From a virus (taxonomy: Duplodnaviria; Caudoviricetes), in the IMG/VR virus record IMGVR_UViG_3300027857_000022, positions 1 to 55,055 of that record: a stretch of DNA of 55,055 nucleotides. One strand, written 5' to 3'. The first letter of the stretch is position 1; each line of letters begins with the position of its first letter. Position numbers and translations under genes: made by a program. This document shows, piece by piece, positions 1-14,222 of this stretch. The notes under the pieces are model-generated. The model made no database searches and was not told the DNA's origin. It worked only from the letters and a program-made list of their open reading frames with translations.

Positions 1-3
1 CGC

Positions 4-243
4 TCACAGGTCAGGGGGATCCACTCGAGCATTGGCTCGCTCCTTTCCCGCTGTTAGGCAGTCGACCCATCTGTCTAAAATCTGCTGCTGCCGACTCCCA
101 TTATACGATGGCTGCGGGCATTCCCGGTGCCAGGCCTTCTTGAATACCGGATCGTAGAAGATTCCACTACCGACTTCGATCCGATAGCCACACCTGGGAC
201 ACGTGCCTGCGAATTTCGCGTACATGAGATACGCACCTGGCAT
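4..243 (-). CDS. Small Zn-ribbon hypothetical protein
   Basis: AKFAGTCPRCG...WHREC motif; RBS AGAAAGGA before ATG at 243. Confidence 0.7.
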   Translation of the reverse strand: MPGAYLMYAKFAGTCPRCGYRIEVGSGIFYDPVFKKAWHRECPQPSYNGSRQQQILDRWVDCLTAGKERANARVDPPDL

Positions 244-370
244 CAAACGATCCTTTCTATTGTTGAGCTTTACACTCAAGTATTGCTCACTGAGAGCCAC
301 TATTTTTGCGAAATATGGACGAGACATCCCAATCTATCAATTTGTTGAGTCATAGCCCTTCTCGTCCATT

Positions 371-808
371 TTAGCGCGATTCTGAGGCATCCTTACGCAG
401 CTGCGTCCTGTGGAACAAACTGACGGCCACCTCGCATCGCGGTCTCTCTCGATCCACGAGCTTGCGTGTGTATTTCTCCACGATCAGATTATCATTCAAT
501 CCGATGCAATCGAATATCGCATCTATCACCGCTTTCTCACCTCCATCGATATCGCGACGCCAGAGCGTTGGAAAGTAGAAATCAATCGTGATTGAGAGTG
601 GTATTTTGCCTTTGGCTTTCTGGATATGATAGATCGTCATCCAGTCGAAGTTGCCCTTTTGCATATAAAGCTTGGCATGTGCCTCTTGCTTGAATGATCT
701 CAGTTCATCTGACCCGTAGAACCTGCCCCTACCAGATTTATAGCTGGCATTGATCCCTGGTGGCAAGGGCAGTGTCACACGGAGTACCTCACCAATCATT
801 GTCTGCAT
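371..808 (-). CDS. rusA: RusA-family Holliday junction resolvase
   Basis: LPLPPGIN, RRDIDGGEKAVIDAI, GLNDNLI motifs; located after the helicase. Confidence 0.85.
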   Translation of the reverse strand: MQTMIGEVLRVTLPLPPGINASYKSGRGRFYGSDELRSFKQEAHAKLYMQKGNFDWMTIYHIQKAKGKIPLSITIDFYFPTLWRRDIDGGEKAVIDAIFDCIGLNDNLIVEKYTRKLVDRERPRCEVAVSLFHRTQLRKDASESR

Positions 809-1031
809 CTTCTCTCATCCTTTCCTCGTATTGTACGACACACGGACAGCACCATATCTTGAGTCTTTCATGCCATACAAACTTCTCGACACTTCTCAGG
901 CACGTAATGCGTTCGCAGTAGCCGTGCTTGCCGCAGTAGAGCGTGCCTGACGGGCTCTTGAGCGTGGCATCCTTGCCACACGTGATACACGGTCCCAGTG
1001 ATGGCACGGCAAACAATTGCTCTTGGATCAT
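789..1031 (-). CDS. Cys-rich hypothetical protein
   Basis: Several Cys clusters; coupled to neighbouring genes. Confidence 0.65.
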   Translation of the reverse strand: MIQEQLFAVPSLGPCITCGKDATLKSPSGTLYCGKHGYCERITCLRSVEKFVWHERLKIWCCPCVVQYEERMREDADNDW

Positions 1032-1033
1032 TG

Positions 1034-2392
1034 TTAGTCCTCTCTTCCTTGGGTTAATTTCTGTTCAAGATTGTAAAACGCTGTAAGCTCTGAGTTGAAG
1101 TACAGCTGTACAGGCTCGCTGGTTGTCGGGCCGTTGCGATGCTTAGCAATCGAGATCTCTGCAATATTGCGCCGCTCAGCAGGAAGCTCGTCAAGCTTGC
1201 CAGCCCGAGCTGCATAATATTCCTCTCGATAGACAAACATTACGATATCCGCATCCTCTTCTATGGCACCGCTATCGCGTAAATCTGCCAGTTGTGGATG
1301 CTTGTCAGGTCGGTCCTCTACTTTCCTGGAAAGCTGAGCAAGAGAAAGCACAGGTACGTTAAATTCACGCGCCATGTTCTTGAGGCCCTTGCTGATCTTG
1401 TTGACCTCCTGCACACGATTCTCAGTCGGCTCGTCGGGAGCAACTAAGCCCAGGTAGTCAACAATCACTAAATCCATCTGACCATACTGTCTAGTCAGAC
1501 GGCGCATCTGGCTTCGCATGGAAGAAAGCGGATTGCCTGCGACATCGTTGATGTAGAGCGGTAGACTTGCAAGCCTACCCGCCGTCTCAATCACCTTGTC
1601 CCATTGCTCATCGGAGAGCCATCCCGACTTTAAGAGATGGAGTGGAATACCAGCAGCAATGGACATCATACGATCATTCAGCTGCGGGCGGTTCATTTCA
1701 AGCGTGAAGATAGCAACGCTTGAACCATGCATTGCCGCATTGTAGGCCATTGTAAAGGCCAGAGCACTCTTTCCCATCGAAGGCCGACCTGCCAGGATGA
1801 CCAAGTCCGACTTCTGCCAACCGCTGGTCATCAAATCCAGATCAGTAAAGCCCGATGCAACCCCCGTGAACGTGCCACGATTGGCATGCAGATGCCCCAG
1901 ATGCACAAGGTACTCGGCCATGGAGTCCGCCATGGTCACAAAGTCCCCTGAGACCGAGCCGCGCTCAACTGCTGTCAGCATGCTCGCAGCTTTCTCTAGC
2001 ATCTGGCTATCTTGTTCATAGGCCAGGGCTGCTACTTCACCAGCATAATGGATAAGCCTGCGGGCTGTAGCAGTTCTCCCCACGATGTCGGCATAGTACT
2101 CAACATTGCCACTGGTCGGCACACAGTTGGTGAGTCCCGTAATATAGCTGGCTCCATCAGCCTCACCCAGCTTGCCACGCCGCTCCAAATCATCACAGAG
2201 CGTCATGTAATCCGCAGGAGTCCCCGCTGCACTCAACTGGACGATCGCCTCGTAGATCACGCGGTGTGCATTTCGGTAAAAGTCGGATGCCTGAAGGAGA
2301 TCACTTACCAAGTCGTAGGCCTCTGGATCAATGATGAGGCTGCCTAAAACCCCCATCTCAGCATCGATATTGTGTGGAAGCAATTTCTCCAT
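1034..2392 (-). CDS. dnaB: Replicative DNA helicase
   Basis: LPHNIDAE N-terminus, Walker A GRPSMGKS, VIVDYL, LAQLSR, DLRDSGAIEEDAD, AKHRNGPT. Confidence 0.97.
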   Translation of the reverse strand: MEKLLPHNIDAEMGVLGSLIIDPEAYDLVSDLLQASDFYRNAHRVIYEAIVQLSAAGTPADYMTLCDDLERRGKLGEADGASYITGLTNCVPTSGNVEYYADIVGRTATARRLIHYAGEVAALAYEQDSQMLEKAASMLTAVERGSVSGDFVTMADSMAEYLVHLGHLHANRGTFTGVASGFTDLDLMTSGWQKSDLVILAGRPSMGKSALAFTMAYNAAMHGSSVAIFTLEMNRPQLNDRMMSIAAGIPLHLLKSGWLSDEQWDKVIETAGRLASLPLYINDVAGNPLSSMRSQMRRLTRQYGQMDLVIVDYLGLVAPDEPTENRVQEVNKISKGLKNMAREFNVPVLSLAQLSRKVEDRPDKHPQLADLRDSGAIEEDADIVMFVYREEYYAARAGKLDELPAERRNIAEISIAKHRNGPTTSEPVQLYFNSELTAFYNLEQKLTQGRED

Positions 2393-3513
2393 CAGTTCAC
2401 CCCCTGGCTCATGAACTGTGCCCCAAGTGCTCGCATTTTGGCAAGTGGATCAATAATCGTACTTTGCTTCTTTGGCTCTTTAAGCTTCTCAGCACGCCGT
2501 CGGGCTTGCTGCCACCCATTGAGATATTTTGCATTGGCAAGGTTGCCTGGACTGACCGTTTTGTCCTTAAGGTTAGAGTCGCTGCTAATCTGCTTGTCAG
2601 TAAAGTCGTAGAGGCTCTTGAAGTCCTCAAAGCTATGGACATGCTCAGAGAGCATCCCCCAGTGCTCTTTGTTGGTGAGGTTGACCTTAACGGCAAGGCC
2701 AAGCTCACGCCACCACTGATGCATTTGCTTCTCTTGCTCGTTATAGATGGCTAATGGGTCCAGTTTATCCGTATTCCTGGTCTGTGGTGGCTTGCTCGCT
2801 TGCTTTTCCACAGTGGTGGATAACTCGGAGGAGATTGTGGACAAATGTTCGACACTGGATTCAGAGGTTTCGCCGTTTGAAACGGAAGTACTCGAAGAGC
2901 TAGAAAGAGAGTGAGTGGATGAGGGAGCGAATGAATCCGATTTTTCCGAATCGGGAGCCATTCTTTCTTTCTTTCTAAAGTGTTTTTCTAAAGTGTCTTT
3001 CTCTGATCGAGGGGTAGATTTTGTACCTCCGAGGGGTAGATTGTACCCCTCTGATGGGTAGTTTCTACCGGGGGTAGTTTCTACCGGGGGGTACAATCTA
3101 CCCCCGTCTTCTACCATCTTAAGCGCATATGATTTTTTCGTTCTTGCTTGATCACTGGTGTCAACTTCACAAATGAGATAGCCGTGATCGACCGCTGCTT
3201 TAATGCCATCTTTCACACTGCGATCGCTCTTTAGCCCAGTGCCTTTGTCCATTCTAGTCCCATCAGCTCGTTTTCTCCCATGCATGAATTCATCAACAGA
3301 GATAGTTTTGGGAATACCGTATTCGTGATATCCCCAGGTGTGTCGCAAAACATATTGGACTACTTTCAATTCGGAGAGGTTGTTAATGCCCGCACAAATA
3401 TCAATCCACTCGTTGGGCATGTGGAAAAAGTTTTTAGTTGGGGGAGTAAATCCTTCAAACATCATGGATACACCATCCTTTCGTGTACCCGCGATTTGCA
3501 TAGCCGTTGACAT
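2392..3513 (-). CDS. Replication initiator, lambda O-like architecture (alternative start 3465)
   Basis: N-terminal wHTH-like domain (SELKVVQYVLRHTWGY), internal iterons, Ser-rich linker; directly upstream of dnaB. Confidence 0.85.
   Translation of the reverse strand: MSTAMQIAGTRKDGVSMMFEGFTPPTKNFFHMPNEWIDICAGINNLSELKVVQYVLRHTWGYHEYGIPKTISVDEFMHGRKRADGTRMDKGTGLKSDRSVKDGIKAAVDHGYLICEVDTSDQARTKKSYALKMVEDGGRLYPPVETTPGRNYPSEGYNLPLGGTKSTPRSEKDTLEKHFRKKERMAPDSEKSDSFAPSSTHSLSSSSSTSVSNGETSESSVEHLSTISSELSTTVEKQASKPPQTRNTDKLDPLAIYNEQEKQMHQWWRELGLAVKVNLTNKEHWGMLSEHVHSFEDFKSLYDFTDKQISSDSNLKDKTVSPGNLANAKYLNGWQQARRRAEKLKEPKKQSTIIDPLAKMRALGAQFMSQGVN
2960..3105. repeat. Putative origin 1: five quasi-palindromic GGGTA(G/C)-N3-5-(C/G)TACC iterons (3011-3104) plus purine/AT-rich tract
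   Basis: ggggtagattttgtacctc, ggggtagattgtacccc, gggtagtttctacc x2, ggggtacaatctacccc inside the initiator gene; adjacent tttctaaagtgt x2. Confidence 0.85.
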
Positions 3514-3643
3514 TTCTTGGTCAAGGATGCTATGCTACAAATGTGCAGGGTACACCCAGGGTTGTCTCTTCTAAGTTTTCCAGGCTCGAGAGGCAACCTG
3601 ACTGCCAAATTTTCAATTGTTTGCCACCAAGGGGTGGCTTTAT

Positions 3644-3841
3644 TTATTTCTGGTCTTCTTTTGCTTTGGTATTCTTTACAAGGTAATCCTCTATCGCCTC
3701 CGGTCTTACCCTCCAGCGACCTCCAACCTTGACGGCTTCCAATGTCCCATTGTCGATGAACTTCTGGACTGTACGCCGTTTGATCCTGAGCATACTGGCG
3801 ACCTCGTCCAGTGTAAGCAATGCCTCTGCCATAACGATCAT
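3644..3841 (-). CDS. Excisionase-like (HTH_17) DNA-binding protein
   Basis: LLTLDEVASMLRIKRRTVQKFIDNGTLEAVKVGGRWRV; RBS AAAGGAG. Confidence 0.85.
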   Translation of the reverse strand: MIVMAEALLTLDEVASMLRIKRRTVQKFIDNGTLEAVKVGGRWRVRPEAIEDYLVKNTKAKEDQK

Positions 3842-3873
3842 GTCTTTCTCTCCTTTCCTCATAGTCTGATGTA

Positions 3874-3908
3874 AGTATAGCACAAAGATGTGAAAGCACA
3901 ACATCTTT
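3874..3908 (-). promoter_or_regulatory. Extended -10 promoter (TGcTATACT) with overlapping inverted repeat AAAGATGT-N9-ACATCTTT
   Basis: Directly upstream of the HTH-initiator-dnaB operon. Confidence 0.55.
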
Positions 3909-3936
3909 TCGCGTGATACCCATAAAATTCATAAAC

Positions 3937-4317
3937 TCACTCATATCGTTTACGCTGCCTTTTCTTCTCTTTCTTGAACTTCAACGGTAGCTCTAGTTGT
4001 CCAGCTTGTAGCTTTTTATCGCGTTCTTTGCGATAGTGAGTACTTCTCGCTTTTCTGGCATGCTCAAACACGTCGTGCTCTAGGTGACAGACTTGACAGA
4101 GGATGATAAGCTTAGCTCTAGCATTTTGGGGGTCATGGTTGACGTGAGCAGCAATTGCCATGACTTTGTAGGGACGCCCGTGCTTGCTTATCCTGATTTC
4201 CCCCTGCTTGGCTCCGCATTTCTGGCAAGCATAGCCAGCCCGCTTTTTGTGCCAGCGGGCTCGTCGTGCAAAATTGGGATGATAGTGGCTCTTATCCCAT
4301 CGCTGCCATCCACTCAT
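3937..4317 (-). CDS. HNH-like Zn-binding endonuclease
   Basis: CQKCG ... AHVNHDPQN ... LCQVCHLEHD. Confidence 0.75.
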   Translation of the reverse strand: MSGWQRWDKSHYHPNFARRARWHKKRAGYACQKCGAKQGEIRISKHGRPYKVMAIAAHVNHDPQNARAKLIILCQVCHLEHDVFEHARKARSTHYRKERDKKLQAGQLELPLKFKKEKKRQRKRYE

Positions 4318-5534
4318 CCAACAACCTCCGCATCTACAATGTCAGTGCCGTTGTAGGAGAAGGGAACTGCGTCTACAGAGCTATCTATGAACGGATCGGC
4401 TTGGTTGTTACGCATCTGTCCTAGAGCTGAGAGGGCTCGCTCTAGGATCTCGACACATTGCGCTTGTCTTGCCCAGTCGTCACCTTCTAGGGACTCCTGA
4501 TCAATGAGAGAGGGCATTTCAGAGACGAACTTTGCTATAGCTACATGGAGGTCTGATGTGTCCTTACGCCACTTTTGACGGATACGAGCACGCCCTACAG
4601 AGGCTTGGGTCTCAGCAGACATCAGGCGTGCCTCTTCAGAGAGCCGCTTGTTGGTTTCGGCTATCTTTGCATTGTAGCTACGGATCTCTTCAAGACTCTT
4701 CTCTTTTGCGTCTACCAGCGTCTTGTAGGTTGCAAGTTGAGTCTGAAGCTCTCTCATTTTGTCTTGAGCTTCCTGTGGAATAGTCCCTTTTGTGGTGTCA
4801 AGTTCTGCCTGTAATTCGTCTATCTTGCCTTGCATCTCTGCTATGTTGTTCTTGACCGACTCAGGTAAAACTTCCTTTTCAATCTCCCTGATCTCGATTT
4901 GAGGGGCTGTGATAGCTTCTAGCTTCTTGATCTTTGCGTCAAACTGCTCTTTCAGGGTTTCAAATTCTGTCTGGAAGGATGCTTCTTTCAGGGTAAGTTG
5001 CTGCTGTGCCGCTCTAGCGTCTGCTTTGGCTTTAATTGCATCTGCTTTAGCTTTAGCTTCTGATATCCTTGCCTCTTTCTCTGCTTTCTTAGCCTCTGTA
5101 ATATCTCTGACTGTAGGACGTATGTCACCTGCAATTACTTGATCAACAATCTCATCAGACGCAGAGGTTAATTCTTGAATAACTCTGGGAGAAAAAGTCG
5201 ACACATGTCGACTTTTTTCGTTTCCAAATCTATTGAATGCTTTCATTGCATAAAACGCGCTTGACCTCTCCAATCCAACTTTTTTTAACCATCCTTCAAA
5301 CTTGCCGTGCAATCCTGCATTTGCTTTTATTAGTCTATCTTGTACTAATAAGAGTCTTTCTCCAGACTCCATAATTTCATTAGCAGCTCTTTTCCAGCTA
5401 GCCCGTATTTCATACTCCTTTTCCATGACAAATTCACGATCTTCAGGGTCAAGGACCTCATAGCGAAATTCGTCAACCTCTTGCTCTTGTGGCAGCTCGT
5501 TATCAAATAGGGTCAAGTTCATCTCGTTATTCAT
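4314..5534 (-). CDS. Coiled-coil protein with DUF3102-like N-terminal region
   Basis: IMESGERLLLVQ...HGKFEGWL...SAFYAM pattern, long coiled coil, internal DNA palindrome. Confidence 0.6.
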   Translation of the reverse strand: MNNEMNLTLFDNELPQEQEVDEFRYEVLDPEDREFVMEKEYEIRASWKRAANEIMESGERLLLVQDRLIKANAGLHGKFEGWLKKVGLERSSAFYAMKAFNRFGNEKSRHVSTFSPRVIQELTSASDEIVDQVIAGDIRPTVRDITEAKKAEKEARISEAKAKADAIKAKADARAAQQQLTLKEASFQTEFETLKEQFDAKIKKLEAITAPQIEIREIEKEVLPESVKNNIAEMQGKIDELQAELDTTKGTIPQEAQDKMRELQTQLATYKTLVDAKEKSLEEIRSYNAKIAETNKRLSEEARLMSAETQASVGRARIRQKWRKDTSDLHVAIAKFVSEMPSLIDQESLEGDDWARQAQCVEILERALSALGQMRNNQADPFIDSSVDAVPFSYNGTDIVDAEVVG

Positions 5535-6507
5535 TAGTAGCCTCTCTCAATTTCTTCTGGACTTCTTCTCGTTTGATCAATTCATTGCGTATGAACTGTT
5601 GTGCTTCTCTTGAGGAATCATGGAACATTTCAACAACAGGGGCTTGTAGCTGTTGCACAATGCGAATATCCTTTTTCGCGATATCCGCATATTTACCAGC
5701 AAGATTGGCCACGCCTGTTCTGAACTTCAAGAGCTTTTCCATGAGTGCAAGTTTTCTCTCAGGGTCGAGATCCATGCTCTTAATTTGTACGAGAATATCT
5801 TCAGTGTCTATGGCCTCAAGTTCTGCCATAGCAATTGCTCTTGCTTGGGCTCCGATGCCAAGTTCATTGTGTGCATGATGAGTTGTTCTAATGTTGTTAG
5901 CGGGTGCCTCCCAATGGGCTCGCAGCATCGTAAAAGACGCTCTCGTTTCTGGCAGGAAGGCACGTCGTCCTTGGGGAAAGAAATGATTGACTTGTCCATC
6001 TAGGGTTATCAGCTCACAGACAAGATCGAACCATGCAAGTTGCTCATTGGTTACAAGCGACCACTTTGCAGGCTTGCCGTTCTTATCCGTTTTTGCGCGA
6101 AACCATGCACTGAGTACGTTGGTGATTTCTTCTGTATGAGGATAAAAGCGATAATTATTCAGCTTATCTACAATAAACGGATTAAGCTGCAAAAATCCTC
6201 TATCCTCAAATTGCTTCTTTCTTTCCTTGCCAGGGTCCTGCTTTTCGACAACAGACCACATACCAGCCATGCCACGGGCCGTAATGGGTATCTCTTCCTC
6301 TTCCTCTACTCTATGTCCACCAACGATGACTTTCTTCATATGCTTTACCATGATCGATGCAGGTTGCCTTAGCTTCACAAGTCTTTCTTCAATGGAAGTA
6401 GGAAAGAGTACATCAAGAGCCTTTAACTGTAACTTAAACTCTTTCTCCCTCCAGTCCTCAATAACATCGTTTGCTATGCTGGGAAGGTAGGATGCTAGAT
6501 CTAACAT
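5527..6507 (-). CDS. Hypothetical protein (326 aa)
   Basis: Long ORF with RBS, overlapping the next gene; no family recognised. Confidence 0.8.
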   Translation of the reverse strand: MLDLASYLPSIANDVIEDWREKEFKLQLKALDVLFPTSIEERLVKLRQPASIMVKHMKKVIVGGHRVEEEEEIPITARGMAGMWSVVEKQDPGKERKKQFEDRGFLQLNPFIVDKLNNYRFYPHTEEITNVLSAWFRAKTDKNGKPAKWSLVTNEQLAWFDLVCELITLDGQVNHFFPQGRRAFLPETRASFTMLRAHWEAPANNIRTTHHAHNELGIGAQARAIAMAELEAIDTEDILVQIKSMDLDPERKLALMEKLLKFRTGVANLAGKYADIAKKDIRIVQQLQAPVVEMFHDSSREAQQFIRNELIKREEVQKKLREATNE

Positions 6508-6519
6508 GTTTAAACCTTT

Positions 6520-6726
6520 CTATGCACTTTGTGCACTGATAATACTCCGTCGTAGCGCATCCGATGGCCGACAAACGATGTCGTGATAGTAGAAGTCCAT
6601 CGCGGCGCAGTCGTCGCAAATGACGATTCGTTCGTCGGGAACGTCGGGATTCTCGTAGTGTGCAAGGTCGTCGCGACCTCCGCAATCGATGCACACATTC
6701 GTCTCGTGGTCGAAGATGTAGTTCAT
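6520..6726 (-). CDS. Small Cys-rich hypothetical protein
   Basis: CIDC...CDDC; RBS AAGGAG. Confidence 0.6.
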   Translation of the reverse strand: MNYIFDHETNVCIDCGGRDDLAHYENPDVPDERIVICDDCAAMDFYYHDIVCRPSDALRRSIISAQSA

Positions 6727-6768
6727 AGCCGTTGCTCCTTGCTCAGTCGTACGCAATATGCGTACACC

Positions 6769-6999
6769 TCATAGATCTTCCCATGTATGGATCGTGACAA
6801 CTGCATCTTGTGTCTGATCTAGCCACTTCAAGCCAAAGGACTGACCACAAGCACAAGAAAAGACATGATGTGCACTAATTGTGTAAAATGACCGATAAGG
6901 TTCAAATACGGGCATTCGACATTTCGGGCAGACGAGCCAGATGCTATGCGCGTGGATCGTCCACGACTCAATAGGTGTGCCGTGCTCAAGGTCACTCAT
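6769..6999 (-). CDS. Small Zn-ribbon hypothetical protein
   Basis: CPKC...CACG; ATGA overlap with the upstream gene. Confidence 0.65.
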   Translation of the reverse strand: MSDLEHGTPIESWTIHAHSIWLVCPKCRMPVFEPYRSFYTISAHHVFSCACGQSFGLKWLDQTQDAVVTIHTWEDL

Positions 7000-7322
7000 G
7001 GCTGTTGCTCCCGTAAGAATGCTTCCATCGCGTCGAGATGCTTTCTTGCATTTTCCACGATGGCTTGCACGTTTTCTCTGTGCATCGTGCCATCCATGTC
7101 GACGCTGTCCTTGAGCTGCCATTCAGCATGACCTACCATGGCACGGGCATTGTCGACAATGTGCTGGAAGTGCCAAAGAAGCCCGTGGTGGCTAATGCGT
7201 GTGTGGATGAGCTTTTTCATTTTTCTCTCCTGTCGCAGCTGATGCACGAGTATGAATGCAATGCGCAGTGGTAGTGGCAGTAGCGCAAAAAATATGATAA
7301 GCACGTCAAAAAAGAGATTCAT
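6996..7322 (-). CDS. Hypothetical protein
   Basis: ORF coupled to neighbours; start uncertain (internal RBS before MKKLIH). Confidence 0.6.
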   Translation of the reverse strand: MNLFFDVLIIFFALLPLPLRIAFILVHQLRQERKMKKLIHTRISHHGLLWHFQHIVDNARAMVGHAEWQLKDSVDMDGTMHRENVQAIVENARKHLDAMEAFLREQQP

Positions 7323-7732
7323 GCGCTTACAACCTCAAAGCTGCTCTCCACGAACTCTGCACTGAAGCATTTGAATAGATCCTCAGTGGCGAGCGAGAGC
7401 ATGTCGCCCCAAGGCAAGGCGTCTTCTTTAGCCTCTTGCCAGTACTCATACTCATCACCATGTAGCGCATCAATAGCTGGCTCAAAGAGGTGATGACTGT
7501 TTGTATTAACACGTGGGAGAAATTCATCAACAAATGACTCATGGACTTCAAGTGCATTTGTGCATGCATTCACCATCATGTGCAGGAGCATCTCCTTGTC
7601 AGCTGTGAGAAAGCTCAACAGAAGCGCAAGATCGTACTTGGCCTGATCATTGTGTATTGGCGCATCGTTGCACGTGACATCAAAGTCGAAGCTTATGCGG
7701 ATACGCTGCTTGAGCAACTCTTGTCCTATCAT
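7319..7732 (-). CDS. Hypothetical acidic protein
   Basis: ATGA-coupled ORF. Confidence 0.7.
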   Translation of the reverse strand: MIGQELLKQRIRISFDFDVTCNDAPIHNDQAKYDLALLLSFLTADKEMLLHMMVNACTNALEVHESFVDEFLPRVNTNSHHLFEPAIDALHGDEYEYWQEAKEDALPWGDMLSLATEDLFKCFSAEFVESSFEVVSA

Positions 7733-7950
7733 GCAGATATTTCCTTCCTGCCATAGCCGTGCTCAATTGCATACTTGATGAGCAGCTCTTTCTTGTGCTG
7801 CCCTGTCTTGCGCATAAGCTTATAGGTATAGTCGTATACAGTGGAAATGCTAATGCGAAGTTTGCTGCCTATATCTTTGTAGGTGTGAAGTTCTGCAAGT
7901 AGACAGAGAACTTGCTGTTCTCTTGGTGTAATGGGACTTTTACGTCTCAT
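7729..7950 (-). CDS. Stand-alone LuxR/GerE-type HTH regulator
   Basis: ITPREQQVLCLLA...YKDIGSKLRISISTV...LMRKTG...LIKYAIEHG. Confidence 0.9.
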   Translation of the reverse strand: MRRKSPITPREQQVLCLLAELHTYKDIGSKLRISISTVYDYTYKLMRKTGQHKKELLIKYAIEHGYGRKEISA

Positions 7951-8340
7951 AAGAGGACCCCCTTCTCCCCAAAAATGCGAAGTAATACCAGCAATTATAC
8001 CGTAATGGTGACAATTTTGTCATCACAGGAAAATTACGGTATTTATGGATATCGAGTTAGCTCAGACGTACGGAGAAGCGGAGTTAGGCAGAAGAGGGTG
8101 GATCAGAATCTCGTAAGGTCGTGCGGACATGTTGTGTGGGTACTGCTCTGTTCATGTGATAATCCCCCTAGTTTCTTTGGCTGTGCGGAGTTTCGTGCAA
8201 TAGCCATTTTTCTTAATTATGCATTATTGCAAGAATATTCTTTGGGGGGTAGTTGTAGAGAAATGGTAATGATATGGTTGTAATTTTGAAAAAGGCATGA
8301 AGAAATGCACAGACCTTGTTTGGCCTGCGCAACAGTTGAC

Positions 8341-8550
8341 TTATATCTTTCTGAAAATGTCTTCTGGCTCTATCTCAAAGGCGTTTGCTAGCTTTTCTAG
8401 TGTCTCAGGTTTGGGCCAACGGAGCCCATGCTCTAGTTGTTGAATGTATCGCGGTGAAAGATCTGCCTCAGCAGCCAATCTTTCTTGTGTCCACTCCCTG
8501 TCTTTTCGGAGTTGTACTATTCGTAATCCTAGTGACCTCGGTAATGACAC
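8341..8550 (-). CDS. XRE/Cro-CI family HTH regulator
   Basis: LRKDREWTQERLAAEADLSPRYIQQLEHGLRWPKPETLEKLANAF. Confidence 0.9.
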   Translation of the reverse strand: MSLPRSLGLRIVQLRKDREWTQERLAAEADLSPRYIQQLEHGLRWPKPETLEKLANAFEIEPEDIFRKI

Positions 8551-8658
8551 TGACCATGTCCTACATTATTTTGCAGGGATTGTAGCCTTGTTACAGAGCT
8601 TAGAACACGTGCAGATTGTTCGTGCTATAATAGAGAGATAGATATTTGTGGAAGGAAA

Positions 8659-8886
8659 TTGCACGTGAATCAAAGTGAAATCGCTATTATCTGCACATCG
8701 ATTGAGCGAGAGTACGAAGCGGCGTGGCGGGCACTCTACGAGTATACCGAGGTAGCAGCTCATCAGGTCATCAATGCGAAGTACGAGCGGATGGGGGAAC
8801 TGATGGAGAATCTCAGCTGTCATGTGGGGAAGGAAGAGGCTGCGAAGATCCTGCTGCGGACAATGGAAAAGGCCCCAGAGCATTGA
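8659..8886 (+). CDS. Hypothetical protein divergent from the XRE gene
   Basis: 75-aa ORF with RBS GGAAGGA (probable GTG start at 8665). Confidence 0.65.
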   Translation: MHVNQSEIAIICTSIEREYEAAWRALYEYTEVAAHQVINAKYERMGELMENLSCHVGKEEAAKILLRTMEKAPEH

Positions 8887-9081
8887 AACCCTGGGGCCTG
8901 GCGATTATCTATTATCGCTTGTACCACGTTGTCATAACTCTCACGATGATATGTTCTTTCCTGCATGATCTGCACTGAAATTTCATCGTAGCGCGTACAA
9001 CGCCTTCAAAATCGAGGTGGAAGTAATGGAGGAAGCATGCAGCTTTGAGCTGACGGAGCTGCTTCCTAGTGACCACGAATC

Positions 9082-9864
9082 TCATGACGCCTCCGCCATT
9101 TCTACGTGCTCAATTTCTTGTTCGAGAGCCCACAACTGGCCCTCATCCAAGCTGATGAGATCATCGGCCTCCAGATCTAGCTCAAGGGCTGCGGAGATGT
9201 ACTCTACCATCTCCTGTTTGTTGGCGTAGAGCCCCTTGGCACGCCCCGCCTTGAAGAGCTGGTTCAGGCGTGCCTTCTTCTTGTCGGCTTCAGTTGCCTC
9301 GTGGATTTCTACCACGGGCATGCTTACATGGTCAGCTTGTTGCATCTCTTCGTTGGTGTAAATCCCGCTCATCTCAGCAGGAAAGGCACGTCTGAATGCA
9401 AGACTTTCAGCGCACTTAGCAGTCATCACATCGGGCATTTTTTGCCAAATCGTGCTGCTAGGCTGGGCATAGCTGGTATAGCGTGCAACGCCCCAAACAG
9501 GCTGCTCAAAATCCTTGCGCAAGATGCCAATGCGTGCCGCTGCTGGTGGCTCGGGCTTCAACCACACGTCAACCCATTCACCGTCAAGCCCACACCACTG
9601 AGGACCGATCTGGCCAGCATATAAGCCTGTTCTCTCTGCCATGAGCCTAAAGCCGTCAATGCTCGTTTGCACAACCATTTGGCCCCCACGCACAACAGCG
9701 TAAATCTGCCTTGCCATGGGATTGAGACGATAATGCTTGCACACTTCGATGAAAAGCAGAAATTGTTCTGGTGTTGTGCCTTTTGCAACGGTCTTACGAA
9801 TAAGTTCTAATTGCTCGTTATCAAACTGCTGCCGTGGGACTAATGTCCTGATGTTATTCTCCAT
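9082..9864 (-). CDS. bet: Bet/RecT-family ssDNA annealing recombinase
   Basis: LNPMARQIY, QTSIDGFRLMAERTGLYAG, WQKMPDVMTAKCAESLAFRRAFP, GIYTNEEM. Confidence 0.93.
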   Translation of the reverse strand: MENNIRTLVPRQQFDNEQLELIRKTVAKGTTPEQFLLFIEVCKHYRLNPMARQIYAVVRGGQMVVQTSIDGFRLMAERTGLYAGQIGPQWCGLDGEWVDVWLKPEPPAAARIGILRKDFEQPVWGVARYTSYAQPSSTIWQKMPDVMTAKCAESLAFRRAFPAEMSGIYTNEEMQQADHVSMPVVEIHEATEADKKKARLNQLFKAGRAKGLYANKQEMVEYISAALELDLEADDLISLDEGQLWALEQEIEHVEMAEAS

Positions 9865-9980
9865 ATGCTATACTCCTTGTCCTACTGTGTTATTATTCTA
9901 TCGGGACTGGCCTTCGACAACCAGTCCCTTCCATCCCAGGGGAAGGCTTATTCCGACTACTTTAGGCCTTCCCATCCACG

Positions 9981-10190
9981 CTACCGATCCACAGGGTACA
10001 CGCCGTACACCTGTGTCGACTCATCCCAGACGACAAGTCCGCCAGGGATCTTCTCTTGCAACGCATCCGCTTCTTTCTGCAAGATACGATCAAGATCAAT
10101 AATATTCTCCAGTTCAACGATTTTGCTAGTGAAGTGTCGGCGAACACTTGAGATGATCGCCAGCTCCTCCATCATTTCTTCAATGGTCAT
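9981..10190 (-). CDS. Hypothetical protein
   Basis: RBS AAAGGA; 69 aa. Confidence 0.65.
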   Translation of the reverse strand: MTIEEMMEELAIISSVRRHFTSKIVELENIIDLDRILQKEADALQEKIPGGLVVWDESTQVYGVYPVDR

Positions 10191-10202
10191 ATTTGTCCTT
10201 TC

Positions 10203-10604
10203 TTATGAAACCCTAAGTATCGAGAATGGGCGATTCCCGTTCAACGGCGCACTCAGCATATCGCGCCGCTTCGAGATGTCTACTATCTTCGAGACAACGG
10301 GCTGTACAGGCAACTTGTCCTGCGATTGTGCAACCTTCGCAGCTGCAACCAACTTTTCGTGTCGGCACGGCTTCGTCGCAGCACAACTGCACTTCTTCTC
10401 ACCAGTCACATCTCGAACGATGTACCACATGTTCTCGCCCAAGCTTGCGGCCCTGACGGCTGTGAACTTCTCACCTTGCTTCAAGGTGACGACCGCGCCG
10501 TTCTCACCCTTGATCGTCATGTCCTTGCGGGCTGTCATCGCGACTTTGTCGGTCCTGCTATCGAAACTGAAATTGACTGCGACGTATCCTCTCGTGGTTG
10601 CCAT
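10203..10604 (-). CDS. SWIM Zn-finger-like protein
   Basis: WYIV...CSC-x5-CRH motif; first gene of a leftward operon. Confidence 0.65.
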   Translation of the reverse strand: MATTRGYVAVNFSFDSRTDKVAMTARKDMTIKGENGAVVTLKQGEKFTAVRAASLGENMWYIVRDVTGEKKCSCAATKPCRHEKLVAAAKVAQSQDKLPVQPVVSKIVDISKRRDMLSAPLNGNRPFSILRVS

Positions 10605-10656
10605 TGTCGTTGCCTCTCTCGCTGTGGTTCGCGTCCCTCGTTCTTGGGACAGTCAT

Positions 10657-10800
10657 AGTATGCCACAAAAATATTTGTCTGTCAATGGTTTTTGAGACCA
10701 ATTTTGAGCAATTTATAAAAATCAAAAATATTGGCAGGCAAATATTGACAGACAAACTTTGGTGCTGTATTCTATGAGGGGCAGGGATATTTGCCTGTGA
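10657..10800. promoter_or_regulatory. Divergent sigma70 promoters with repeated CAG(A/G)CAAA(TAT) operators (switch 1)
   Basis: Leftward TTGACA(10685)-17-CATACT; rightward TTGACA(10745)-17-TATTCT; four operator copies. Confidence 0.8.
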
Positions 10801-10834
10801 AATATCCCTCATGTTTCATGAAAGGAGGGCATAA

Positions 10835-11071
10835 ATGAAGAAGGAGTGGATAACAGCGAAAGAAGCTGCTGAAATTATCTCAGCAAATAGCGGTCGTCCC
10901 ATCATTCAGCAGTATGTCCGAGAACTAGCACAAAAGGGTAAAATCACGTATAAGCCATTTGATGGACGTACTAATGTCTACCTGCGCTCGGATGTGGAAA
11001 AGATCAAGGTTCGCATCAAGAAGGTAGCAGACAGGCCAGACCAGAAAACAAAACCAGAGGAAGCGGCTTAG
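10835..11071 (+). CDS. HTH DNA-binding protein (MerR/Xis-like), paralogue of 19828..20103
   Basis: EWITAKEAAEIISANSGR...YVRELAQKGKI...YLRSDVE; strong RBS. Confidence 0.85.
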   Translation: MKKEWITAKEAAEIISANSGRPIIQQYVRELAQKGKITYKPFDGRTNVYLRSDVEKIKVRIKKVADRPDQKTKPEEAA

Positions 11072-11184
11072 GCCGAACACGCGGTACTTGCCCTTGTTGA
11101 GGACCCTAGGAAAGTTTATCGACACGGTTAGCCACCGCGTGTTCTCAACCCTGTAGCCTTAGTATAACATGGGGAATTTTTACG

Positions 11185-11568
11185 ATGGCAGACGAGGAAG
11201 TATTCCCGGGTTTCTGGCATCCTAACAACAATGAAGGATTTTCCAAATTGCCACATGAACTGATAGACCGTCTCAATAAGATTGAAAGCCTCTCAGAGCT
11301 AAAAATCATCCTGTACATCATGCGCCACACGTGGGGATTCCAGGAATTTGAGAGAGGCAAAAAAATCACTACAGATGAGTTCATGCATGGCAGAAAGAAA
11401 GCAGATGGTACTCGCATGGATAATGGAACCGGACTTAGTGACTGGGGCGTTAAGGATGGTATTGCTAAAGCTCTGAAGCATGGGTATGTTCTTTGCGAGA
11501 TAGATAACCGCGACAAGGGCCGCATTAGGAAGTACTATAAGATCAATATCTACGTTGATCCTCAGTAA
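11185..11568 (+). CDS. Truncated paralogue of the replication initiator (N-terminal DNA-binding domain only)
   Basis: LSELKIILYIMRHTWGF...DEFMHGRKKADGTRMDNGTGL aligns by eye with 2392..3513; stops where the iteron linker begins. Confidence 0.85.
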   Translation: MADEEVFPGFWHPNNNEGFSKLPHELIDRLNKIESLSELKIILYIMRHTWGFQEFERGKKITTDEFMHGRKKADGTRMDNGTGLSDWGVKDGIAKALKHGYVLCEIDNRDKGRIRKYYKINIYVDPQ

Positions 11569-11571
11569 GTT

Positions 11572-11770
11572 AGATGGGAGAAATTCTCCCATCTGGTAGG
11601 AGATCTGCTCTCATCAGTCAGAGATTTACTCTCATCACATAGAGCAGATCTCCTATCGATCAGAGAAAGAAACTCATATAGAAAGAAACCTGAAGGAAAG
11701 AAACGAGTGAGAGAAGCCGCATTCGCGTTCCTCGCTCTCGCTCGCCCGCATTCGCCCACTCACTCTTTCA
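11572..11770 (+). repeat. Putative origin 2: four GAGA...CTC(C/T)CATC-type quasi-palindromic iterons plus conserved downstream tract
   Basis: agatgggaga-aat-tctcccatct, ggagatctgctctcatc, agagatttactctcatc, agagcagatctcctatc, then tcgatcagagaaaga identical to origin 1. Confidence 0.7.
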
Positions 11771-11956
11771 CTCCTTATGTTCTCCATACACTTGCAAGCT
11801 GAACTTCTGCATGAATCTCCCAAGATGCTGCATCATAGCATCGCGGCTCTCTGATGGTCGCTCTAATTCGAGTTGTGCCAAGGTATCAATGAGAGCCTTC
11901 ATAACAACTTCTGCCTCTTCTGAAGAAACGATGAAGTCTATATGCTTATCTTGCAC
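11768..11956 (-). CDS. Hypothetical protein
   Basis: RBS GAGGAGGA before GTG. Confidence 0.65.
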   Translation of the reverse strand: MQDKHIDFIVSSEEAEVVMKALIDTLAQLELERPSESRDAMMQHLGRFMQKFSLQVYGEHKE

Positions 11957-12203
11957 TGTTTCCTCCTCATTTTCTCAGTGTGAATAGAGTGGCCTGTAAT
12001 TGCCGCCATGGTCTGAACAGCTGCCAGATCTACCACCCGATTTCGAGAATGTATCATCGTTGCATTCCTCTTGTTGGGATCATAGGGCGGTTGTGGCCCG
12101 TTCGGATACTGGTTCATTTGTGTCAAAATACCCTTTCTTTGTGCAAAGAGACTAGACGTGCAGAGTTGCAAATATGCACTATATATACGCATATATAGCT
12201 CAA

Positions 12204-12512
12204 TTATACCAAGGGCATAGGCGTTGGGGTAGCAGGCGGATAAGTCGGCGTTGGCTTAGGCCTCGTGGTAGGTGTTGGAGTAAGCGGACTGTGGGAGAAG
12301 TGGCTCACTGCAGGATGGAAACTCCCCTGCGAATGCAGCCGACTTCCCGTGATGCTCTCTCCAATACCATTCGGATTTGAGCTACCCTTCTTGCTTGCAC
12401 GCAATGATTTGACGAATGCAGGCCTGGGTGCTTGCGCCTGGCTCGTTGCGACGAAATAGGCCGCAGGCACAAGAAAAGCAAATAACGAGAGTAGAACAAT
12501 TATTCGTTTCAA
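12204..12512 (-). CDS. Secreted/membrane-anchored Pro/Thr-rich protein
   Basis: Signal-like KRIIVLLSLFAFLVPAAYFVA, PTPT tail; RBS AAGGAG before TTG. Confidence 0.55.
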   Translation of the reverse strand: MKRIIVLLSLFAFLVPAAYFVATSQAQAPRPAFVKSLRASKKGSSNPNGIGESITGSRLHSQGSFHPAVSHFSHSPLTPTPTTRPKPTPTYPPATPTPMPLV

Positions 12513-12648
12513 AACAATTCTCCTTGTTTCAAGATGGTAATGCAAATATTGCACATGAATCAGAACGAGTGAATGAGGCGATGATAACAGACGGGCATAA
12601 CGAGTTTTACGAGTTTGCGAAAACTGATCAAAATTGGTCGAAAACCCC

Positions 12649-12678
12649 TTGACAATGCGACGCAGAAAGTCGTATAAT
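12649..12678 (+). promoter_or_regulatory. Consensus promoter with TGCGAC-N7-GTCGTA inverted repeat in the spacer
   Basis: TTGACA-18-TATAAT. Confidence 0.8.
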
Positions 12679-12716
12679 ATCTATAGATGATAGAATTACT
12701 TGAAAGGACGAGGAAG

Positions 12717-13148
12717 ATGAATATTTCTGAACTGAGCGAGCATAATGGAGTCGAGACTTATTTCCACGTCACCACAGCGTGGAATTGCAATGAGATTGCC
12801 AGACATGCTCTTGAATCCGGCAAAGTTGAGCTAATTGGGCGTCCGATGGGAGATCACGAAGAGATCCGTCGCGGGGCTGAATGGTCGGAATATTCAAGCT
12901 GGTCTGAAGGCGTTGCGTACGCCACGGATTTCTACAATCGTGATAACTGTTGGGAATATGCGGGTCAGGATCGGCATACGGGTGCCATGTTCGTGTTGGG
13001 ATGGAATGGTGCTGATAAGGAAGCAGAAGATGAGGGTGGCGAGTATGTTGTTCCTCTGGACGGCTACGACGTGATAGCCGTCGTGACCCTGGATGAGGAT
13101 GATCAAGAGATTGTTCAGAATCCGATGGAGTGGGCAATTGGCAGATAG
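12717..13148 (+). CDS. Hypothetical acidic protein
   Basis: RBS-preceded ORF just after the promoter. Confidence 0.75.
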   Translation: MNISELSEHNGVETYFHVTTAWNCNEIARHALESGKVELIGRPMGDHEEIRRGAEWSEYSSWSEGVAYATDFYNRDNCWEYAGQDRHTGAMFVLGWNGADKEAEDEGGEYVVPLDGYDVIAVVTLDEDDQEIVQNPMEWAIGR

Positions 13149-13410
13149 CGAGTATCAGTCGGCAGAGCGGGTGCTGAGTCTGCTGCTCTATCTCCTTCAA
13201 AAGCAGCAGGGAGCAACACGTGAGGAAGTCTATCAGCATGTGCCATCCTATCGGCAAGCTCCCTCTGAGTCGGCTCAGCGTAGGATGTTTGAGCGCGATG
13301 TCAAGCAGATTGAGCAGGTCGGGTTCAAAGTTGAGCGCCAACGGGGTGGTCCGAGCTTGGTAGTGAGGCAGAATGCCAAGCACGCAATTTACAAAGTCTC
13401 AATGCCGTAG
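13138..13410 (+). CDS. Stand-alone winged-HTH resembling the N-terminus of PafB/WYL regulators
   Basis: ERVLSLLLYLL...TREEV...VPSY...RRMFERDVKQIEQVG; no WYL domain follows. Confidence 0.75.
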   Translation: MADSEYQSAERVLSLLLYLLQKQQGATREEVYQHVPSYRQAPSESAQRRMFERDVKQIEQVGFKVERQRGGPSLVVRQNAKHAIYKVSMP

Positions 13411-13438
13411 AGCTGCTAGGAGATAGCAGCTCTTTTTT
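13409..13438 (+). terminator. Intrinsic terminator
   Basis: agagctgcta-ggaga-tagcagctct followed by a T run. Confidence 0.85.
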
Positions 13439-13517
13439 GTGCGCTACAATGGCGCAGAACAGGCATTTGCGACTTTCTAGCAAATCTAAAAATTGGTCAA
13501 AAATCAATGCAAAAGGT

Positions 13518-13550
13518 ATTGACAAACAGACTTATAAGTCGTATAATAAA
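13518..13550 (+). promoter_or_regulatory. Consensus promoter with palindromic operator GACTTATAAGTC (copy 1 of 33-bp repeat)
   Basis: TTGACA-17-TATAAT; identical to 14732..14764. Confidence 0.9.
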
Positions 13551-13600
13551 GATAGTTAAGCGATGGGCTTACACAGAAGTTCAAAAACAAGGAGAAAACA

Positions 13601-13999
13601 ATGGCAACCAATCTTCAACTCCCAGAAGGATACACAGTTCGCAAAGTCGGCAATGTTCTCAAGGTCGTCCCGATGAGAAAGGTTGCCATTGTGAAGAAGA
13701 AAGCAATGCCCAAGAAGATCGAAGTGTCAATTCATCCGTTCGGCTCATATCGTGAGCAGTTATGGATTGGGAAAGTCGTTAATGGGGAATTCGTCAAAGA
13801 GTCCCCTCTCTATAAGGAAGTTCAGGCAGGAAAGATAGTTGCCAAGAAAACATACACTGGGAAGTTTGGAAAACCCTCCACATCGGAGGACTGGGAGATT
13901 ACCATCCCAGATGGTTTTCCGATGGCTCTTGCCAAAAGTCGTCTGTCTGATACCAGCTTTGTCCGAAGAGATACAGAATACGAGGTGTTGTGTGGGTAA
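13601..13999 (+). CDS. Hypothetical basic protein
   Basis: RBS AAGGAG; 132 aa. Confidence 0.75.
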   Translation: MATNLQLPEGYTVRKVGNVLKVVPMRKVAIVKKKAMPKKIEVSIHPFGSYREQLWIGKVVNGEFVKESPLYKEVQAGKIVAKKTYTGKFGKPSTSEDWEITIPDGFPMALAKSRLSDTSFVRRDTEYEVLCG

Positions 14000-14222
14000 A
14001 ATCGAAGAGTATCTGCCAGTCGGTCAAAGAGTTCGGTTTGAGTCAGAGGGCATGCGGGTATGGCAATATGGTCAGATTGAGGGCCATTATGCCACGCGTC
14101 ATCAGGGGAATATGGTTGCCCGTATTCGCCATGATGACGGGCAAATCACGGACATGCCGCATTGGTTTATTGATGCACACGAGCCTCGTAATTCCCTAGT
14201 GAAGAAGGTGAAAAATGCCTAG
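13992..14222 (+). CDS. Small hypothetical protein (SH3/KOW-like pattern)
   Basis: LPVGQRVRF...YGQIEGH; RBS GAGGTG before GTG. Confidence 0.6.
   Translation: MGKIEEYLPVGQRVRFESEGMRVWQYGQIEGHYATRHQGNMVARIRHDDGQITDMPHWFIDAHEPRNSLVKKVKNA

Follow-up and report, generated by a model that had tools for sequence, protein, structure and literature searches.

Why would a phage that encodes a full-length replication initiator also carry a stand-alone copy of the initiator's DNA-binding domain, beside a second set of iterons? The question is raised by a virus of the Caudoviricetes (IMG/VR record IMGVR_UViG_3300027857_000022), whose whole record of 55,055 bases, rated complete by CheckV, is the window analyzed here. 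On the minus strand, the gene for a 373-amino-acid (aa) initiator (copy 1) holds one set of iterons (ori1) in its linker-coding part. On the plus strand, a 127-aa open reading frame (ORF) paralogous to the N-terminal domain (N-domain) of copy 1 stops just short of another set (ori2). A preliminary description of this DNA took the short ORF to encode another DNA-binding protein derived from an initiator, with iterons different from those of the first; our analysis supports that core idea. We consider it very probable that the short gene and its site form a selected, cis-acting protein-plus-site module; together they point to a second replication-control module in these phages. The elements of the module, in window coordinates, are as follows.

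11185–11568, plus strand: predicted stand-alone origin-binding protein of 127 aa, with a winged-helix, lambda O-like N-domain and without a C-terminal domain (C-domain)
11572–11657, plus strand: four dyad-symmetric iterons (11578–11593, 11600–11615, 11621–11636 and 11642–11657)
11656–11670, plus strand: 15-mer identical to one in ori1 (2996–3010, minus strand), the start of a family-wide purine-repeat element
11658–11716, plus strand: purine-strand tract with AGAAAGAAAC-type repeats at 11664, 11680 and 11695 and a degenerate fourth
11702–11776, plus strand: weak outer inverted repeat (purine arm and pyrimidine arm) enclosing two copies of the direct repeat CCGCATTCGC (11717–11726 and 11746–11755)

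The short ORF is intact, with its TAA stop at 11566–11568. Its product is identical to residues 18–136 of copy 1 at 63 of 121 positions (52%; E 1e-42), which bears out the earlier claim of an intact N-domain paralogue that stops where the iterons begin. In an AlphaFold2 model (predicted local distance difference test score, pLDDT, 83.3), three helices (residues 36–49, 63–68 and 86–99) and a beta-hairpin wing (strands 102–107 and 115–120) make up a winged helix-turn-helix (HTH), and the ORF ends 5 residues past the last strand. Foldseek matched the model to MarR/ArsR-type regulators, the Orc1 winged helix and DnaD_N with probability 1.0; against the PDB there were no matches at E ≤ 1e-3, only generic winged-helix ones. 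Among BFVD models, one named 'lambda GpO N-terminal' matched with E 1.2e-3 and a template modeling (TM) score of 0.61, and others were named replisome organizer and replication initiation protein. Profile matches of the short protein stayed below the curated cut-offs for both PF04492 (E 0.053; 14.5 bits, cut-off 28.7) and TIGR01610 (E 0.0027; 18.1 bits, cut-off 45.5), and weak PF04492 matches recurred in 54 of 56 clade members (best E 2e-5). By these scores, the short protein would be at most a remote relative of lambda O-type initiators. Because neither the short nor the long window protein had a Pfam or PHROG match at default thresholds, and relatives were absent from all 50,697 GenBank phage records searched, the family is invisible to current annotation. 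The PADLOC defence-system models likewise matched neither protein.

A split gene and an extended product were considered and rejected. As regards a split gene with a separate C-domain, tblastn of 226 C-terminal tails of long members, which covers detectable homologues, matched only copy 1 in the window. A read-through or frameshift product was rejected because the frame stays open past the stop for 77 codons in the window but for only 0–34 in 11 relatives, and for 120 in one. The preliminary description had called the downstream DNA out of frame and interrupted by stops. This is right for the DNA homologous to the copy-1 linker, which continues in the +1 frame and runs into a stop, but not for the frame of the ORF itself, which stays open for those 77 codons after the TAA.

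The first ori2 iteron lies inside a 23-bp perfect palindrome (11572–11594) that begins 3 nucleotides (nt) past the stop of the short ORF, and the four iterons follow one another at start-to-start distances of 22, 21 and 21. The pattern GAGN5CTCYYATC matched five times in the window (the four sites plus the reverse reading of the palindromic first), all within 11573–11657, with 0.11 matches expected and none of 100 shuffled sequences reaching five. Similarly, GGTAN5TACC had four matches in the window, all within 3035–3102 in ori1, and none of 100 shuffles reached four. Neither iteron type was found at the other origin: the ori1 type occurs only at ori1 and the ori2 type only at ori2. The 15-mer occurs exactly twice, at 11656–11670 on the plus strand and 2996–3010 on the minus strand (expected 0.01; 0 of 100 shuffles with two). 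The adjoining tract (11658–11716) is 80% purine and 63% A+T and ranks in the top 0.02% of 59-nt windows by strand skew, and aligning the two origins shows that they share a cattcgc / ccactcactct motif. The site thus combines phased repeats with an A+T-rich, strand-skewed tract, as an iteron-type origin does, and the inverted repeat at 11702–11776 stands where relatives have a strong hairpin. On all these elements (four iterons unlike those of ori1, the shared 15-mer, the purine tract and the shared motif) the preliminary description was accurate. It had, however, exchanged the putative recognition segments of the two proteins: GLSDWGVKDG is that of the short copy, and the full-length copy has GLKSDRSVKDG.

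To place the short protein, we scanned 1.84 billion representative proteins, of which 1850 were relatives at E ≤ 1e-3; among the best 150 of them, lengths of 210–670 aa predominated, and the domain was N-terminal in nearly all. A length-restricted search gave 106 proteins of 69–223 aa at E ≤ 1e-10; the best 55 of them were 123–150 aa long and 56–89% identical, and ended 5–10 residues after the last strand, near the stop of the window protein. No longer protein exceeded 60% identity to the short protein, the best standing at 60%. In the metagenome loci that we fetched (numbered with L), 12 of 13 complete ORFs at least 56% identical stopped 2–10 codons past the domain, the exception being a long form, L039. 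A FastTree phylogeny of 242 N-domains (13 of 255 domain-hit proteins were left out for an incomplete domain) gathered 65 short proteins into one all-short clade with support of 89, and an inner clade of 53 rows with support of 96; the short clade was named only after this first tree had been seen. In an IQ-TREE analysis of a 100-row subsample, constraining the short proteins to one clade improved on the free tree by 27.9 log-likelihood units (p of the approximately unbiased test, p-AU, 0.78). Copy 1 of the window fell on another major branch than the short copy. A recent duplication of the resident long gene was rejected on two grounds: the copies sit on different major branches, and the 15-mer, which had been taken earlier as a tie between the two, is family-wide.

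Between the window and L029, the closest pair, nonsynonymous divergence (dN) was 0.070 and synonymous divergence (dS) 2.08, a ratio of 0.034. The ratio was also 0.034 for L031/L032 and 0.082 for L036/L037, and in five other pairs dS was too saturated for an estimate. By these ratios, the short gene is under strong purifying selection, and on comparative grounds the 127-aa ORF is the working gene of an old, well-conserved clade.

Conservation extends into the DNA beyond the stop. All 12 short loci inspected (11 distinct sequences) had four dyad repeats about 21–22 bp apart, starting 0–8 nt past the stop. In 11 of the 12, the exact pattern of an anchor, (T)CGATCAGAGAAAGAAAC, matched 86–99 nt past the stop; two or three more AGAAAGAAAC-type repeats followed every 15–16 nt, and then usually a hairpin. 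A 13-sequence alignment contained 22 invariant columns, nearly all in AGA.AGAAAC purine repeats, and the purine element was kept although synonymous sites of the neighboring gene were saturated. Of the distinct loci, 53 of the 77 with a long form and 6 of the 11 with a short one had CAGAGAAAGA within 450 nt past the domain; among 285 random windows, nine had a looser form. The long forms carry the element within their coding sequence, where it reads RSEKD/ET. Because the element that begins with the 15-mer is invariant also where it is untranslated, the constraint acts on DNA, and the shared 15-mer is, from this distribution, part of a family-wide putative origin motif.

Across the short loci, moreover, iterons and protein vary together: the iteron sequence changes in step with the first residues of the predicted recognition helix, a segment that corresponds to the start of helix 3 (residues 86–99), before the beta wing, in the winged-helix model (pLDDT 83). 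Proteins with SDWGVKDG were accompanied by GGAGA..CTCC iterons (window, L029, L030 and L033), those with SDRGVKNG by GGAAC..GTTCC (L034–L037), those with SSWG[VA]QEG by TTACTG..CAGTAA (L031 and L032) and those with TKQSVIAG by TCTAAA.TTTAGA (L040 and L043). The closest long form (L039/P0003; 60% identical), with SDRGVKDG, had GGAA..TTCC-type repeats inside its ORF. Matching iterons stood beside every short gene inspected and co-varied with the helix, which points to action of the protein in cis. Together with the confinement of each repeat type to its own site, these patterns show the predicted specificity of ori2 to be orthogonal to that of ori1. The preliminary description had proposed a search for full-length initiators with ori2-type iterons. 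None was found among 118 loci, where the pattern occurred in four (the window locus and three short-clade loci), and it occurred nowhere in viral_contigs and at seven places in genome_contigs, none of which adjoined a family member; because the gap in the pattern was fixed at 5 nt, some sites may have been missed. One locus, L030 (L030:468–3250), encodes a 391-aa long and a 126-aa short initiator in tandem, with different repeat types. This tandem pair is followed by Gp49-like and HTH_37 genes that look like a toxin–antitoxin pair.

Copy 1 of the window is one of the long forms of the family.

2392–3513, minus strand: full-length 373-aa initiator (copy 1), with ori1 within its linker-coding part
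3007–3104, minus strand: ori1 iterons, five GGTA..TACC dyads
2958–3010, minus strand: ori1 purine tract, translated as RSEKDTLEKHFRKKER

The C-domain of copy 1 is common to other long family members, and repeats lie inside the linker-coding part of long family forms. A DnaB-like gene lay within 2.5 kb in 9 of 43 long loci with enough flank. Among the precomputed domains of the protein collection, PF04492 was given for one long member and DnaA_N (PF11638) for three. The linker repeats, the DnaB linkage, the weak similarity to lambda O, these precomputed domains and the BFVD matches speak for a family of replication initiators. One further member, P0001 (331 aa), has two tandem N-domains behind an extra N-terminal region of about 100 residues. 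Long and short members co-occurred in the window and in L030, the two cases in which this could be judged; among the other IMG/VR records searched, all nine with a family member were single-copy (eight long forms and one fusion to an HNH nuclease).

In lambda-type phage origins, one protein recognizes the origin and brings the helicase, and the origin is buried in that protein's own gene. Copy 1 conforms to this plan: the origin lies within its ORF, and a gene for a DnaB-type helicase follows downstream. The short protein shares with the lambda O / P22 gp18 type (PF04492 Phage_rep_O, TIGR01610 phage_O_Nterm) the N-terminal winged helix and four dyad sites beside an A+T-rich skewed tract, but it lacks the C-domain, its similarity lies below curated cut-offs, and its iterons stand outside its ORF, so that the origin-like site is external where lambda O and copy 1 have the origin within the coding sequence. 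Ori-lambda itself, which lies inside gene O, consists of four iterons of 18 bp and an adjoining 38-bp region of high AT content (PMC3349717).

A second precedent is Bacillus phage SPP1. According to the account of its origins in PMC3485210, G38P acts at oriR, 12 kb from oriL, which lies inside its own gene; at oriR it is believed to stall forks, and the stall is believed to switch theta replication to recombination-dependent concatemer synthesis. The window resembles SPP1, as far as that account goes, in having one origin in the initiator gene (ori1, about 3.0 kb) and a distant second site (ori2, about 11.6 kb; 8.6 kb apart, 12 kb in SPP1), and in encoding a single-strand annealing protein, a resolvase and a DnaB-type helicase.

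1034–2392, minus strand: DnaB-like replicative helicase (phrog_19, 2.8e-106), directly downstream of copy 1
9082–9864, minus strand: RecT-family single-strand annealing protein (PF03837, 1.2e-29; phrog_2780, 1.7e-65), context for recombination-dependent replication
371–808, minus strand: RusA-like Holliday-junction resolvase (phrog_34, 7e-10), context

The likeness is one of layout, and no sequence relation is claimed. In SPP1 the same protein acts at both sites, whereas the window has a truncated paralogue with a different specificity, and the repeats of ori1 and ori2 differ, each confined to its own site. In iteron plasmids such as P1 (RepA/incA) and R6K (pi), extra control iterons or shortened Rep forms control rather than initiate replication; these plasmids use one initiator specificity, in contrast to the independent, orthogonal protein–site pair of the window. 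Keyword searches of open-access text turned up no account of an O-type N-domain that stands alone beside an external origin, a result that does not prove absence.

The layout of the module is fixed: the short gene ends in its stop, four dyad iterons spaced by two helical turns come next, and a purine-repeat tract and usually a hairpin follow. We propose that the short protein binds the adjacent iterons in cis, probably as one dimer per dyad, and builds a lambda-like, O-some-like nucleoprotein complex on the phage's own DNA. Since the whole clade lacks the C-domain of the long members, which in the window sits beside the phage DnaB, helicase would not be recruited by that route. The reading that we prefer, and consider a realistic possibility somewhat short of probable, is that ori2 acts as a non-firing site or barrier: modeled on SPP1 oriR, the bound origin-like site would control the mode of replication, and the RecT, RusA-like resolvase and DnaB of the window would serve a recombination-dependent concatemer route.

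Several points weigh against this picture, or against parts of it. A pure barrier leaves unexplained why conservation is as strong in the purine tract and hairpin, which make up the unwinding side of a lambda-type origin, as it is in the iterons, and SPP1 manages both origins with one protein where a dedicated paralogue is seen here. The five short loci with 1.5–6 kb of flank (L032, L033, L037, L038 and L040) had no long copy or DnaB nearby; should no long initiator be encoded anywhere else in these genomes, initiation would have to fall to the short protein. Long and short loci did not differ significantly in helicase linkage (9 of 43 versus 0 of 5). Folding of the window hairpin is weak (z −0.9, versus −9.1 in L036 and −6.6 in L037), and the co-variation has an exception in L038, where an SDWGVKDG helix accompanies GGTAG..CTACC-like repeats. 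The monophyly of the short clade, named as it was after the first tree, was judged from 128 columns, and homologues were sampled by length class, which may exaggerate the separation of short from long. Binding, fork arrest and lack of firing at ori2 are all predictions.

The strongest rival, and a serious one although we think it unlikely, is that ori2 is a true firing origin and the 127-aa protein a minimal initiator that binds the iterons and opens the purine tract. Helicase would then arrive through the phage DnaB directly, through a transcript or R-loop from an early promoter 0.8 kb upstream, or through host factors. Such an origin would account for a complete lambda-type layout under selection outside any ORF, for the fact that the purine-rich strand, a short way past an early promoter, is in every case the sense strand of transcription, for a location (the early-right unit, behind a small HTH gene) that houses the replication genes in lambdoid phages, and for the five flanked short loci that have no long copy nearby. 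It is harder to reconcile with the C-terminal domain being present in none of at least 55 members, with the failure to find a stand-alone C-domain gene in the window, with the lack of an adjoining helicase or loader gene at any of the five short loci, and with the complete long initiator that the window and L030 each carry in addition. Distinctly less likely is a transcriptional device, in which the short protein on its iterons and the downstream hairpin autoregulate or terminate the early-right unit and the origin features are an inherited scaffold. This unit is indeed short and self-contained: it has a promoter-like site at 10745, faces convergent ORFs of the minus strand beyond 11768 and is followed by a new consensus promoter at 12649; L036 and L037 have strong hairpins followed by pyrimidine runs, and a leader stem is conserved with compensatory changes. 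Against this, four phased and four purine repeats conserved at single bases far exceed what an operator or terminator needs, termination would do harm in the long ORFs, which contain the same purine motif, and the window has no significant hairpin.

The preliminary description had itself offered three functions. Its dominant-negative blocker, a helicase-less N-domain that would sit on the iterons of rival phages sharing its origin type and arrest their replication, draws on the precedent of Odn from phage ICP1, in which an initiator-derived DNA-binding domain is turned against a rival's origin; as described in the relevant part of PMC8263062, Odn is a nuclease whose DNA-binding domain mimics the rival's initiator and which needs the rival's iterons to cut. 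To the extent of that description, the separation of an origin-binding domain from the rest of an initiator is alike in both cases, and a sister clade that fuses the N-domain to an HNH nuclease parallels the endonuclease fusion of Odn; the many iteron classes are also what an arms race would predict. The window protein, however, is without a nuclease (no second domain of any kind was found in its 127 aa) and its target repeats lie beside its own gene, and family, host and nuclease type all differ from Odn. Every inspected short gene keeps cognate, co-evolving iterons in cis, no long initiator with ori2-type iterons was found among the 118 loci, viral_contigs and genome_contigs, and the nuclease-bearing sister lacks iteron-like repeats in the one locus examined, all of which makes the blocker very unlikely. 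No better placed, and if anything slightly less so, is a low-copy maintenance replicon for a plasmid-like carrier state. It would suit the compact cassette of regulator, binding protein and origin-like site, and a serine recombinase directly downstream in L037, placed like plasmid multimer-resolution genes. The absence of integrase families from the 75 window ORFs (PHROGs, 1e-5) would suit it as well, but partition families were equally absent there, no partition genes were found beside the module in five loci, the genes downstream of the module are not conserved, and the helicase-recruiting domain is missing for this role too, so that the genome offers it no support. The last option, a recent relic of a duplicated initiator, we regard as refuted for practical purposes. 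DNA after the stop is homologous to the copy-1 linker yet frame-shifted and holding a stop, as a relic would have it; but the tree places the short copy at some distance from the resident long gene, the stop position is conserved across a clade with saturated synonymous sites, and the non-coding elements are conserved. Close relatives with the full-length gene and a neutrally evolving short copy, which would have favored a relic, did not appear: the closest relatives are all short, with the same stop, and dN/dS is about 0.03.

If the protein-plus-site module is what we take it to be, two jobs united in lambda-type origins are separated here: the clade keeps the recognition half, and the origin DNA lies outside the gene, yet under tight selection. 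Such a module would offer a natural system for the role of origin recognition alone (opening, barrier or regulation), for the code between helix residues and iteron bases, of which four matched classes are already visible, and for two orthogonal origin-type sites in one phage genome. The few genome matches of the family include Chloroflexota metagenome-assembled genomes (Ktedonobacterales and Anaerolineae), among others. A wider picture, which we offer tentatively and find rather doubtful as a whole, is that soil phages, probably of Chloroflexota, carry a widespread, undescribed module of a helicase-domain-less O-type protein and a co-evolving externalized origin, independent of the classical initiator, and that the sister clade has been weaponized as HNH origin-directed nucleases. 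If this were true, either a 127-aa protein would suffice to license an origin, as the smallest iteron initiator, or the module would be a programmable fork barrier that sets the theta-to-concatemer switch; the weaponized sister clade would explain the rapid turnover of iteron specificity as an arms race over origins.

The surroundings of the module were annotated by a PHROG scan of the window ORFs. Structural, lysis and packaging genes occupy the minus strand from about 25.8 kb to the end. The early region is transcribed both ways from about 10.6–10.8 kb, where promoter-like sites on both strands lie within operator-like repeats. The leftward unit encodes RecT, an HNH protein, a small HTH protein, the 373-aa initiator, the DnaB-like helicase and the RusA-like resolvase; the rightward unit begins with a 78-aa HTH gene, followed by the 127-aa ORF.

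10745–10773, plus strand: candidate promoter-like site (TTGACA, 17 nt, TATTCT; 10 of 12 consensus matches) at the head of the small rightward unit
10835–11071, plus strand: small HTH protein of 78 aa, excisionase/MerR-like (phrog_4691, 1.5e-4; phrog_2474, 5.6e-4; HTH_17 weak)
11075–11144, plus strand: long-range inverted repeat with 11-bp arms in the leader of the short gene (DNA fold z −3.2; 1 of 200 shuffles as good)

The −35 hexamer of the promoter-like site at 10745 falls within operator-like inverted repeats. Throughout the divergent promoter region (10653–10809), inverted and direct repeats are nested: TTGACAGACAA / TTGTCTGTCAA overlaps both −35 hexamers, and ATATTTGCCTG is present in pairs. 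This arrangement looks like the operator set of a genetic switch. Homologues of the 78-aa HTH protein were encoded ahead of the short gene in L029; in L030, L058 and L108 they preceded family members. In an alignment of the window with L029, the leader inverted repeat was kept with two compensatory arm changes, and it may be an RNA or DNA regulatory stem. On the far side of the module, a consensus promoter at 12649–12678 (TTGACA, 18 nt, TATAAT; 12 of 12) precedes plus-strand genes from 12687. Three minus-strand ORFs (11768–12554) stand between this promoter and the short module, which indicates that the module is its own small unit. No tRNA genes and no Rfam families at gathering score were found in the window (1–55055).

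Five phages related to the window by their capsid (63–77% identity class; L127, L135, L138, L131 and L130), with major capsid proteins 67–75% identical, had no family member in any case, and the three largest of them had no DNA similarity to window positions 1–14000. The early region is accordingly, as far as these relatives tell, a mosaic module, and no close genome was available for its comparison.

The clade nearest to the short clade comprises 14 rows (support 97), 12 of which are 212–229 aa long. In the three proteins examined (L047, L061 and L108), the same N-domain is fused to an HNH nuclease. The L061 protein (L061:5998–6760, from the same record as L011/L003) matched NF040563 (5.8e-6) and a ZorE-type HNH (7e-5). 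No iteron-like repeats were found at L061, the one sister locus examined, and no other family member in its 94.5-kb record. After the HNH stop come purine repeats and a flank almost identical to the post-iteron DNA of L029. The L061 protein looks like an Odn-like origin-directed or homing nuclease in place of iterons. The clade suggests conflict over origins among related phages, and such conflict may explain the turnover of iteron classes; origins as a battleground of this kind have been demonstrated so far only for ICP1 and PLE. As a separate observation on a single short locus, a serine recombinase gene (L037:6523–7341; Resolvase, 4.3e-45, plus HTH_7) directly follows the module hairpin of L037.

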